Of a stretch of DNA of 64,000 bases, positions 11,566 to 14,057 are shown in pieces (position 1 is the stretch's first letter; each line of letters starts with the position of its first letter). The translations under genes were made by a program, and so were the position numbers. The DNA is taken from the NCBI GenBank assembly GCA_963835065.1, contig CAWIEK010000001.1:32001-96000 (forward strand), written 5' to 3'. This stretch comes from an uncultured Chthonomonadaceae bacterium. GTDB lineage: Bacteria; Armatimonadota; Chthonomonadetes; Chthonomonadales; Chthonomonadaceae. The notes beneath the pieces were generated by a model. The model saw nothing but the letters and a program-made list of their open reading frames with translations. It did not search any database and was not told where the DNA came from.

Positions 11566-11829
11566 CTCGCCTGCTTCCTGTGCGCGCCTATCTTTCTAAC
11601 AATCCAGGAGGCGCAGAAGTTCGATTGGGTGTTGTAACCTTCAAAATAGCGAATTCAATAACTGAGCATAATACCTGCTGTTCGCGCAGGACGCGCCGTT
11701 TTCCTTCTATACCGCAAACATATCAGGCTGACAAACGTTTTGAAGTGTAGCAATGTGTTGTCTGACGCTACAGCCAAAACACGTTTTACGAAACATCACC
11801 TTCTCTCGAAACGCGCGAACAAGCAAAAG

Positions 11830-12320
11830 ATGCCGGATATTTTCACTGTAGACAACTTTATTACCCTCTATGAAGGCGACAACCGCCGAATACGGTTTGC
11901 CTGGAACGGCAAACATGCTGACGATTTTGAAGACGCCAACGCAACATTCCGCGCTGCCATTCTTGCGCGTCTGTTGACAAATCCTGAACTTGCACCCCTG
12001 TCGCTTATTCGGGACGTGTTTGTTGCGGAAACGGCCTGGGCCGGGGAGTCGTGGCGCGTAAATAAACACCTGCACAATCTGGCTAATTTGCTGTTGACAA
12101 GGGGGCGCGGGGCTGTTCTGGATGATTTTCTTTTAGGCCGCGCCACCAGTTTTGATACGTACTGTGCCTGTACAAGAATTAACATCGAATCCAGGCTGCA
12201 GTGGAATTGCGGAACGAGATTGAACAACGCCTGAACGTGGAAACAGATCCGCAAATCCGCGCAATTTTTCAGGATGGTTACAAACTGTTTACAGACTATC
12301 TTGCCCGTCAAAAACCTTGA
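11830..12320 (+). CDS. Hypothetical protein (frameshift near 12190)
   Basis: ORF from ATG 11830 continues in another frame as AVELRNEIEQRLNVETDPQIRAIFQDGYKLFTDYLARQKP*. Confidence 0.5.
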
Positions 12321-12453
12321 CATCGCCCTTCAATCGCAAACCTTCTGCCGTAACAAACGTATAATTTTGCAGTGATATGCAGCCATTCCACAAGGCAAGT
12401 TGATTTTGTGAACAGAGGCTTTTCGTTTTAGGCAGTGAACAAGGAAGCAAGGC

Positions 12454-13218
12454 ATGGCAGAGGCAGAACAGGCGATTAACACCGAACAATCAAGCGCGGA
12501 AGAGCGGGCATTGGAGCAGCGCCTGACGGAACTGCAAATCAATCCACAGCAGGCCAACGAATTGCAGATGCTGGATACGGCGCAAGAAGAAGCCACAGGT
12601 GAAAACGCGGCAGAGGGAGAAAGCGGGCGCGGGCATCACCATGACACGCGCAGCCTGCTGCACATTGATACCATTTACATGGAACCGCAGGTCGAGGAGT
12701 ATGCGCGGGGCCGGGAAATTCTGGCAAAGTTCCCCCACGCCAGGCGCATTGAAATCGCGTCCCACTGGAAAATACCCGAACTGCACGGCAACGCCGAACT
12801 GGTGCAGGATTGGGTCAGGGTGAAACGCGGCGTACTGGTGCTGGGCGTGAAGAAGTCGCTGTCGGCTATGCCCTATGAGCGCAGTTGTGATTTTGTCGCG
12901 CCGTCTCATGCCAATGGCTGTTCAATGGCCTGCGCGTACTGCGTCGCGCCGGGAACGCTGATTTCAACGCCGCAAGGCCAAGTACCCGTTGAACAAATTC
13001 GGGAGGGCAGCGCCGTACTTGCTTTTGATAGTTCTGCGGGACGGCTGGTAACGGGGTTTGTTTCGGGAACGGCTTGCAGGGAAGTGGAGGAAGCGCTTGA
13101 AATCGAGGTGGACGGCACAACGCTGCGCGTGACGGCAGAGCATCCTATCTGGACGCGCCGGGGGTGGGTAAAAGCCGGCGAACTGACAGAAGACGATGAA
13201 GTTCTCTGTTTTTCATGA
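12454..13218 (+). CDS. Spore photoproduct lyase-family radical SAM protein, N-terminal half, fused to intein N-fragment
   Basis: SHWKIPELHGN..DW.RVKR.VLVLGVKK..DFVAPSHANGCSMACAY matches SplB-like proteins up to the CxxxCxxC motif, then Hint-domain sequence and stop. Confidence 0.85.
   Translation: MAEAEQAINTEQSSAEERALEQRLTELQINPQQANELQMLDTAQEEATGENAAEGESGRGHHHDTRSLLHIDTIYMEPQVEEYARGREILAKFPHARRIEIASHWKIPELHGNAELVQDWVRVKRGVLVLGVKKSLSAMPYERSCDFVAPSHANGCSMACAYCVAPGTLISTPQGQVPVEQIREGSAVLAFDSSAGRLVTGFVSGTACREVEEALEIEVDGTTLRVTAEHPIWTRRGWVKAGELTEDDEVLCFS
12940..13218 (+). other. Intein N-terminal splicing domain (blocks A and B only, 92 aa)
   Basis: Block A CVAPGTLISTPQG, block B LRVTAEHPIW (TxxH), GWVKAGEL..DEV; no block F/G (HN) before the stop. 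Confidence 0.88.
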
Positions 13219-13325
13219 TTCCATGATTGAGGAGATACGTCCCTCATGGTAATCATCGTAATCACATAAATCATGGTTCAGACAAAGGAGGGTCAGGCTT
13301 ATACTGCCGCTTCATGCGAGGATGA

Positions 13326-14057
13326 TTACTTGGATGGCTTGGGGTGAAAACTCGCGTCGGGCGTGTTGCCGTCGGCGTCCTTGCCTAATTCGGTCAGGCG
13401 ATTGGTGACGCCGACCACCATTTCGGCAAGGGCGCGGCTCATTTCCCCGCCTGACAACAGCTTGTCGTCGGCGGCCAGCAGGGGCGATTTGGGCAACACC
13501 ATATTCTTGTCAACAAGGTACGTCAGCGCGGCATACGCAGGGTGCGTTTTAGGCAGCGTGATTTTGGGCTTGGGCGGGAACACTTCAGACTTCGCTAAAT
13601 CTTTGGCGTCCGGGGTGGGGCGGGACAGCCCGGCGGACACGTAATCGCCCATGCTTGCCAGCACCTTCGCCAGTTCGTAGCGCGTCACGCGCTGCGTTCG
13701 CCAATCCCCATGCTCCAGCGGCTTCAACACCGTGTCGGCAACGGGACGCGACGGCTGCGCCTTCCACGTTCCCGCTTCCAGCATCTGCGCCAGTTTCGCA
13801 AGCGCGATTACAGCCTGCCCATGCGTCACCTTTGCCTCGCCATGAAACTCTTTCCCGTCCGGCAACGCCATCACGCCGTTGTCCAAGACTTCCTGTACAG
13901 ACGGCGCGGCCCAGTGGTCGGGGCGAACGTCAGGAGGTAATGATGAGTGATGAATGATGAGTAATGAATGATGAACACTCAGGCTATGACAAGGCGAAAT
14001 AAGGCAGAACAATGCCAGCAGCAGGTAAATTTTCAAAGCAGGGTTTGTACTCATCAT
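13326..14057 (-). CDS. S-layer homology (SLH) domain protein
   Basis: PDVRPDHWAAPSVQEVLDNGVM, TRYELA, HPAYAALTYLV SLH-like motifs; signal peptide. Confidence 0.8.
   Translation of the reverse strand: MMSTNPALKIYLLLALFCLISPCHSLSVHHSLLIIHHSSLPPDVRPDHWAAPSVQEVLDNGVMALPDGKEFHGEAKVTHGQAVIALAKLAQMLEAGTWKAQPSRPVADTVLKPLEHGDWRTQRVTRYELAKVLASMGDYVSAGLSRPTPDAKDLAKSEVFPPKPKITLPKTHPAYAALTYLVDKNMVLPKSPLLAADDKLLSGGEMSRALAEMVVGVTNRLTELGKDADGNTPDASFHPKPSK

Follow-up and report, generated by a model that had tools for sequence, protein, structure and literature searches.

Two unlinked genes very probably encode the halves of one SPL-like radical SAM protein, which would be joined by trans-splicing through a predicted pair of split-intein fragments, IntN and IntC. 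The N half lies in the window, the whole stretch of 64,000 nucleotides analysed here (G000:C1:32001-96000), taken from a metagenome-assembled genome of 8.0 Mb in 71 contigs (91.9% complete, 3.7% contamination); the C half lies on another contig. We hypothesize that the acidic IntN and the basic IntC bind each other and splice both halves into one chain, and trans-splicing would be the only way to complete the three-cysteine iron-sulfur motif of the enzyme. That the halves splice functionally is, in our view, highly probable; trans-splicing, homing and expression are all predicted here from sequence.

A broader reading is likely as well. About 270 nt would encode, on opposite strands, the beta-rich N half of a split intein and, from its own HNH homing nuclease, the metal-binding helix with a folded, helical tail; this mobile cassette would invade the Fe-S motifs of radical SAM proteins both in phages and in bacteria of two or more phyla. 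Empty, fractured, re-fused and dispersed stages would then coexist among close relatives, and this genome would represent a young, DnaE-like end state in which the enzyme is made only by trans-splicing.

The two half-genes and their predicted product

The ORF at 12454-13218 (+) encodes 254 aa, made of a 162-aa N-extein ending in NGCSMACAY and 92 aa starting at 12940 (Table 1). This agrees exactly with the sequence-only reading, which had described a SplB-like N-terminus up to NGCSMACAY followed by a 92-aa fragment with no C-terminal block; our recount of the charged residues in this acidic fragment (15 D/E against 7 K/R) was also identical. The N-terminal features of a class 1 intein are present, with a Cys encoded at 12940 and the block B motif T-x-x-H (T-A-E-H), and the second Cys ligand of the iron-sulfur motif occupies position Cys-3 relative to intein Cys1. 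The HN dipeptide and the +1 nucleophile are absent from the ORF. PT-HINT and Hint_2 scored above their Pfam cut-offs in the intein fragment, and the N half matched NF038136 across the extein/intein junction; the intein N-terminal model TIGR01445 reached 17.2 bits on IntN, under its cut-off of 24.5. The closest profile match of IntN was PT-HINT and its closest solved structure a bacterial intein-like domain. Downstream of the stop, the other two forward frames close early, as had been noted, after about 4 and about 11 codons past 13218, and the convergent gene placed about 110 bp further on is an SLH gene that ends at 13326, 107 bp later. RNA folding of the stretch after the stop gave no signal (z -0.28).

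Table 1. Features of the split gene. Positions are those of the window unless a contig is named.
Feature	Position	Strand	Evidence
N-extein, 162 aa: acidic leader and N-terminal part of TIGR03886 SPL-like radical SAM protein	12454..12939	+	TIGR03886 1-96, E 5.5e-40; alignment to intein-free P0002 up to residue 158
C-S-M-A-C-A-Y: Cys ligands 1 and 2 of CxxxCxxC	12919..12939	+	sequence; aligned to SP lyase Cys90/Cys94
IntN, 92 aa: Cys1, block B T-A-E-H, 15 D/E vs 7 K/R	12940..13215	+	sequence, Hint family matches
Decaying antisense relic of HNH C-terminal tail; one in-frame stop opposite 13145-13147; no start, no N-terminal part	12962..13204	-	tblastn 40-49% identity, E 1e-9 to 1e-14
Left-truncated copy of ~100-bp palindromic dispersed repeat	13207..13287	.	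79 blastn matches in G000, 9 starting at 13207
IntC and C-extein gene, outside the window	G000:C32:33467-34348	+	family search, C-terminal intein match
Strain copy of the C-half gene	C63:17709-18590	+	family search

A distant gene with a short basic IntC ending in HN and followed by C-Y-V had been predicted, and it was found on contigs C32 and C63. The family search of the genome returned three matches, the N half in the window and two C halves spanning positions 83-346. Each C gene encodes 293 aa, a 39-aa IntC ending in T-H-N and then C-Y-V with the radical SAM core. The two halves are unlinked (C1 against C32/C63) and complementary in charge, IntC being basic (5 K/R against 1 D/E, as compared with 7 against 15 in IntN). 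TIGR01443 scored 31.5 bits on IntC (cut-off 15.6), with T-H-N directly before the Cys in both copies. The contigs C32 and C63 overlap end to start over about 27 kb at 97.7-98.7% identity; they were read as strain versions of one locus, and two true copies of the C-half gene were discarded as an explanation. Since both halves lie mid-contig, they must be at least about 77 kb apart. Intein C-terminal matches numbered nine in the genome, and no competing free IntC is among them, because two are the C32/C63 copies, six lie deep inside frames of 691-1129 aa and one is noise (E 7.6). Block F of many class-1 inteins contains an Asp and a His; here it has neither, a feature common to the whole family. 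A promoter scan around the C half was uninformative (1 site, 0.9 expected).

Aligned singly to the intein-free homolog P0002, the N-extein runs to residue 158 and the C-extein starts at residue 159, leaving no gap, with identities of 78% and 92%, respectively. Joining the halves would restore C-x3-C-x2-C and the following Tyr, which in the alignment correspond to Cys90/94/97 and Tyr98 of SP lyase. The proposal that the +1 Cys after IntC provides the third ligand of CxxxCxxC agrees with both the C-half sequence and the P0002 alignment. Cys1, T-x-x-H, His-Asn and Cys+1 are all kept and the exteins abut exactly, which supports a split intein. No intact copy of the gene was found in the 92%-complete assembly. 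A truncated pseudogene devoid of a partner is refuted by the presence of the C half in the same genome.

By its profile scores the host family is TIGR03886, SPL-like, and not spore photoproduct (SP) lyase proper. P0002 reached 577.8 bits with TIGR03886 (cut-off 437.55; the halves scored 137.6 and 424.3 separately). The protein resembles the spore photoproduct lyase SplB (TIGR04070; PDB 4FHC), whose functional residues are defined in the accessible text of PMC3467042, in its fold, its CxxxCxxC motif and a Tyr at the Tyr98 position. Unlike SplB, it stays far below the TIGR04070 cut-off (116 bits for P0002 against 400), the H-donor Cys140 aligns with Thr, and the Ser76/Cys77 site (clostridial Cys77) aligns with Tyr. 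Among the best 120 homologs, the Cys140 position is Thr in 86, Glu in 22, Cys in 7 and Ser in 1, with 4 unparsed. A model of a natural relative with a contiguous (cis) intein (pLDDT 82.5) matched SP lyase with a TM of 0.83 of target and Hint domains with a TM of up to 0.88. Fold and family name make a role in the repair of DNA or nucleotides plausible; the DNA-repair role put forward in the sequence-only reading was not supported, the SP-lyase H-donor Cys being aligned with Thr.

An inverted nuclease gene in related loci

A search for the same split in relatives indicated that it is a family trait, with 40 N-half and about 30 C-half proteins in total. Homologs of the C half were analysed as the best 120 of 3155 in a length-limited search: 31 start with an IntC (the partner of the window gene included), 16 carry a cis intein, 69 are intein-free and 4 were unparsed. 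The IntC measures 37-39 aa in 30 of these 31 and 61 aa in one. On the N side, 40 of the 56 matches consist of N-extein and IntN followed by a stop, and 38 of the 40 have an IntN of exactly 96 aa. Some N-half matches sit on short contigs, others on contigs of 0.2-7.4 Mb; in three named N/C pairs the accession numbers of the halves differ by two. The split form occurs in the named cultured cyanobacteria Leptolyngbya sp. NIES-3755 and DQ-M1 and Nodosilinea sp. TSF1-S3; in a sample of 401 genomes of a cyanobacterial class, 17 have the gene, of which two are split and one is cut at a contig end. In the class of our own genome the gene was found in only 6 of 68 genomes (three intact, G031 intein-free but frameshifted, G032 cis, G000 split) and is therefore dispensable. 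The frameshifted allele L026, in the same genus (G031:C7:95714-96752), gave four matches, and its frameshifts may reflect a sequencing error or decay.

The intein is inserted at a conserved host site, for which intein-free alleles exist (the 69 among the best 120 homologs). Contiguous relatives had been named beforehand as a sign that the window gene is a truncated pseudogene. Such relatives do exist (G032; P0349, with 92.5% C-extein identity; the 16 among the best 120), but they do not make it one, because the C half is intact and the nearest cis gene holds a nuclease relic. Two short proteins, P0163 and P0162, have an IntN start that runs into the last residues of the extein or into unrelated sequence and are likely decayed alleles.

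In five cellular or metagenomic loci (L030, L095, L096, L193 and L194) the two halves are co-oriented, 560-585 bp apart, with an HNH ORF of about 275 aa on the opposite strand; in G560 these three matches recur in identical order. The HNH ORF overlaps the IntN coding sequence in antisense by 266-272 of 291 nt. The overlap encodes HNH residues 188-275, the last ~88 codons, including His195 and His199, and this arrangement accounts for the fixed 96-aa length of IntN. H169, N186, H195 and H199 are invariant in 22 HNH sequences, which have the HNH motif and Zn-type Cys pairs. The Pfam HNH model scored 23.3 bits on the nuclease (cut-off 21.4), and NUMOD1 was weak. A structural model of the nuclease had a mean pLDDT of 88 and a confidently helical tail; Foldseek returned zero PDB matches at E<=0.001, and its top matches among viral models were mostly HNH proteins. 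One of the five loci, L193 (G381), has an early in-frame TGA in the HNH gene and N-D instead of N-G in IntC, a possible first step of decay.

Of 492 viral loci the best 80 were analysed: in 34 the gene is split and accompanied by an inverted HNH gene, 44 lack an intein, and 2 either run into a contig end or could not be parsed; the ranking was by similarity to a split query, so the share of split loci is inflated. The nuclease is inverted in all 5 cellular or metagenomic and all 34 viral split loci parsed. In 25 viral loci the identities were 81% for IntN, 86% for IntC and 67% for the C-extein. A profile search with the nuclease gave 33 representatives (50% clusters) at E<=1e-30, most of them with the tail. 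Four viral scans for distant relatives of the nuclease yielded one full-length locus, on the viral contig L201, with the same cassette at the same site in a divergent SPL-like gene. This viral gene (L201:1242-4952) has a very short N-extein of 36 aa, with a thymidylate synthase gene nearby. The nuclease tail also occurs in about 30 divergent HNH clusters (P0191-P0235), some with insertions or deletions, and their host genes may include split inteins outside the SPL-like family; in the phage and plasmid record collections the search for the host genes of these distant relatives gave no full-length match.

Over 72 IntN codons the antisense frame was free of stops in 5 of 5 HNH loci, and the identity of its translation to other tails was 0.585-0.746, as compared with at most 0.33-0.43 in 2000 synonymous recodings of each. 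The frame was also open in 25 of 25 distinct viral IntN sequences (mean chance 0.018), 9 of the 34 having been left out as duplicates or incomplete. Codon use was then compared position by position at sites with the same residue. In six cellular or metagenomic loci the same-codon fraction was 0.755 for IntN, 0.447 for IntC, 0.424 for the non-overlapped HNH part and 0.477 for the C-extein; in 25 viral loci the corresponding values were 0.938, 0.773, 0.662 and 0.605, and because related loci are not independent these codon counts overstate significance. Synonymous sites are frozen in the overlapped part only. Recent homing was rejected as the sole cause of codon conservation in IntN, since two other parts of the cassette, IntC and the non-overlapped HNH stretch, lack a comparable degree of conservation. 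Antisense dual coding is a feature of the putative ancestral cassette that the sequences support well, and the antisense HNH tail is predicted to be translated.

We propose the following origin. An HNH gene would have inserted backwards into the loop that usually holds the endonuclease of the intein, splitting the gene; its last ~88 codons, with the two His of the metal-binding helix, would be read antisense to IntN and would have fixed IntN at 96 aa. Homing is the likely means by which the three-gene cassette passes between phages and bacteria.

History of the split

In our genome the free-standing nuclease found between the halves in relatives is reduced to the relic under IntN, the sole HNH match obtained by tblastn; no intact HNH gene was found elsewhere in the assembly. 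The relic retains an identity of 0.428, as compared with at most 0.344 in 2000 synonymous recodings. Synonymous conservation is relaxed in the window IntN (105/232, against 88/221 in the N-extein). The break falls after V-L-C, and the nuclease is gone up to about His195. Intact copies of the dispersed repeat hold the same T-run/CATGATT stretch, and the repeat is the likely source of the last two IntN codons (F-S) and of the TGA stop at 13216-13218. We suggest that a rearrangement in this lineage, probably at the dispersed repeat, cut the catalytic helix of the nuclease and trimmed IntN to 92 aa, and that the same event left the halves at least about 77 kb apart, like those of cyanobacterial DnaE.

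Three observations concern the surroundings of the break. The ~100-bp imperfect palindromic repeat family is also abundant in soil and biocrust runs. Some 60 bp before the start of the C half there is another short repeat. A 622-bp stretch of the window (11712-12335), with an ORF at 11740-12234 that matches no family over cut-off, is skipped in a contig of sequencing run X2 and represents a strain-variable insertion just upstream of the N half.

The dispersed state could also have arisen by breakage of a re-fused cis mini-intein instead of directly from the HNH-fractured locus. The nearest relatives do include cis alleles (G032 and P0349), and repeats flank both break points. However, the IntC of our genome has its Met at the offset shared by nearly all split C halves, 38-39 aa before the junction, where cis alleles have Thr, Gly, Lys or Glu, and a new break would need to recreate this start. 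The Met favours direct descent from the fractured state, and we consider a cis-break history possible but unlikely.

In sister lineages the nuclease was likely deleted instead, and re-fusion gave cis mini-inteins. The cis gene closest to that of the window, L029 (the same protein as in G032), still has an open antisense tail with an identity of 0.668, which points to a recent re-fusion; the distant cis allele L097 has three antisense stops and no signal. On an unrooted IntN tree (64 rows, 90 columns) the cis and split states require 7 changes, at least 4 of them forced by strongly supported branches. Since this tree lacks a root and is short, we base the sequence of events on the relic under IntN and on the Met at the shared offset instead.

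Between the window gene and its cis relative, dN/dS was 0.11-0.14 for both exteins and for IntN, a span that includes time before the split, and IntC was saturated. Very little variation postdates the split, and most of it is synonymous: this holds for 5 of 6 differences in X2, and C32 differs from C63 by two synonymous changes and one replacement. The sequences flanking the gene in G031 and G032 correspond to other contigs of our genome (C53 and C22), and neither half is located there.

Alternative readings and known systems

The sequence-only reading had also regarded the split as a post-translational regulatory switch, for which we found no supporting evidence. Adaptive maintenance of this kind, with redox or stress gating of a DNA-repair enzyme, would be compatible with trans-splicing and is unlikely. 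The spacing of Cys-3 and Cys1 is that of the Pyrococcus abyssi MoaA intein, in which a disulfide between the two controls intein activity according to the available part of PMC3922620, and unlinked genes permit separate control. Cys-3 is needed anyway as a cluster ligand, though, and intein-free alleles dominate (69 of the best 120 homologs). The IntN tree shows at least 4-7 switches between the cis and split states, the pattern expected of a selfish element.

It is very unlikely that the halves only look intact and are in fact dead remnants of a dispensable gene, broken by a recent rearrangement and no longer able to splice. The rarity of the gene in its class (6 of 68 genomes), the frameshifted copy in the same genus (G031) and an IntN shorter by four terminal residues would fit such decay. 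Both frames are nevertheless open, every splice-junction residue is kept, and most strain differences are synonymous. The same 92-aa IntN is common to three assemblies (89-92 of 92 residues identical), and a further assembly has a separate 293-aa C half with 97% extein identity.

A non-covalent heterodimer, in which the halves pair through the Hint domain or cleave it off and are never ligated, is highly improbable. The best matches of IntN, PT-HINT and a bacterial intein-like domain, would allow it, and Aeh1 NrdA is assembled from two chains (PMC2677866, as far as its accessible text goes). Here, however, the break falls inside the 8-residue cluster-binding loop (as delimited in the excerpted PMC3467042), Cys1, His-Asn and Cys+1 are all retained, and intein-free alleles join exactly at the site.

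That the gene is truly split is almost certain. Four sequencing runs were compared over 12880-13340 as contigs, not reads, and X1 could be the source sample. A 96-nt contig of X1 spans the stop with zero differences; contigs of X2 and X3 agree through 13221, with no difference listed at the stop, and then diverge; X5 covered the downstream repeat only. The stop is reproduced in 3 of 4 runs, from 3 studies. The check around 13218 proposed in the sequence-only reading thus came out in favour of a genuine stop, X1 bridging it and X2/X3 matching through 13221. A frameshift or misassembly at 13218 was ruled out by the early stops in the other frames and by these three runs. An assembly or binning artefact is barely credible: the 71 contigs, 3.7% contamination, strain-duplicated C32/C63 region (97.7-98.7% identical) and contiguous close relatives would be set against halves that both lie mid-contig, a stop recurring in 3 of 4 runs and split forms that occur in named cultured strains as well as on contigs 1.2 to 7.4 Mb long.

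The arrangement resembles the fractured genes of Dassa et al. 2009 (PMC2677866), whose available text describes 26 loci with three genes on one strand and GIY-YIG or Vsr-like nucleases; the downstream gene is overlapped by 6-69 bp, and the hosts are eight replication enzymes, mainly of phages. As in those loci, the break in the host gene falls inside the intein, after block B and before block F, and relatives have a free-standing nuclease gene between the two halves. Their model predicts later nuclease loss and unlinking (steps III-IV in the same text), the state seen in our genome. Unlike their loci, the nuclease is of the HNH type, is inverted in all parsed split loci and overlaps IntN in antisense by about 270 nt. 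Their hosts also differ from ours, a radical SAM protein found both in bacterial chromosomes and in phages.

Similarly to the split inteins of cyanobacterial DnaE and Nanoarchaeum equitans PolB, the gene consists of two unlinked parts with an acidic IntN of about 100 aa, a basic IntC of about 36-40 aa and the standard split site; those hosts are replicative polymerases, whereas the present host is patchily distributed. DnaE is thought to have been broken once, irreversibly (PMC2677866, in the portion available). Unlike DnaE, intein-free, fractured, contiguous and dispersed alleles coexist here among close relatives. In Aeh1 phage nrdA too, an HNH nuclease gene, presumably mobE, breaks an enzyme gene in two. 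Unlike here, that system has no intein, its chains assemble non-covalently and its three genes are co-transcribed (PMC2677866, same portion).

Inteins in radical SAM hosts are represented by P. abyssi MoaA, with the same Cys-3/Cys1 pair (PMC3922620), and by actinobacterial SplB/COG1533 (NF038136), of which 48 are tabulated in the part of PMC4760082 at hand. As far as these sources extend, those inteins are contiguous, so that an intein in a radical SAM protein is not new and a natural split is. The accessible text of PMC12707363 and PMC11766414 gives typical split-intein sizes, with no radical SAM host among those listed. Our searches, largely of open-access literature, found no account of an SPL-like split intein or of an antisense nuclease-intein overlap; intein lists in supplements could bear on novelty.

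The origin and unlinking of split inteins have so far been a model drawn from scattered phage loci and two end states. In the present family, close relatives show the predicted stages at a single insertion site, and cultured cyanobacteria are among them, so that each step is testable. The long antisense overlap of two conserved proteins, with codon support on both strands, would be a clean case of gene birth by overprinting, and it would couple nuclease and intein so that neither is easily lost alone. As candidate reagents for protein ligation, the family offers dozens of small, naturally occurring IntN/IntC pairs (92-98 and 37-39 aa). If splicing is required, the iron-sulfur site would be complete only once two gene products meet.

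Other inteins are present in the genome. A GTP cyclohydrolase I gene, folE (L352:549-1787 (-), contig C49), contains a contiguous intein ending in HN before the Cys, the FolE match scoring 252 bits in two stretches; to our knowledge FolE is an unusual intein host. Six more intein C-terminal blocks lie in long frames on contigs C44, C49, C53 and C3 (L007, L008, L011-L014), in hosts that we take to be GyrA, NrdJ (two), DnaB (two) and an AAA ATPase, making this an intein-rich genome.
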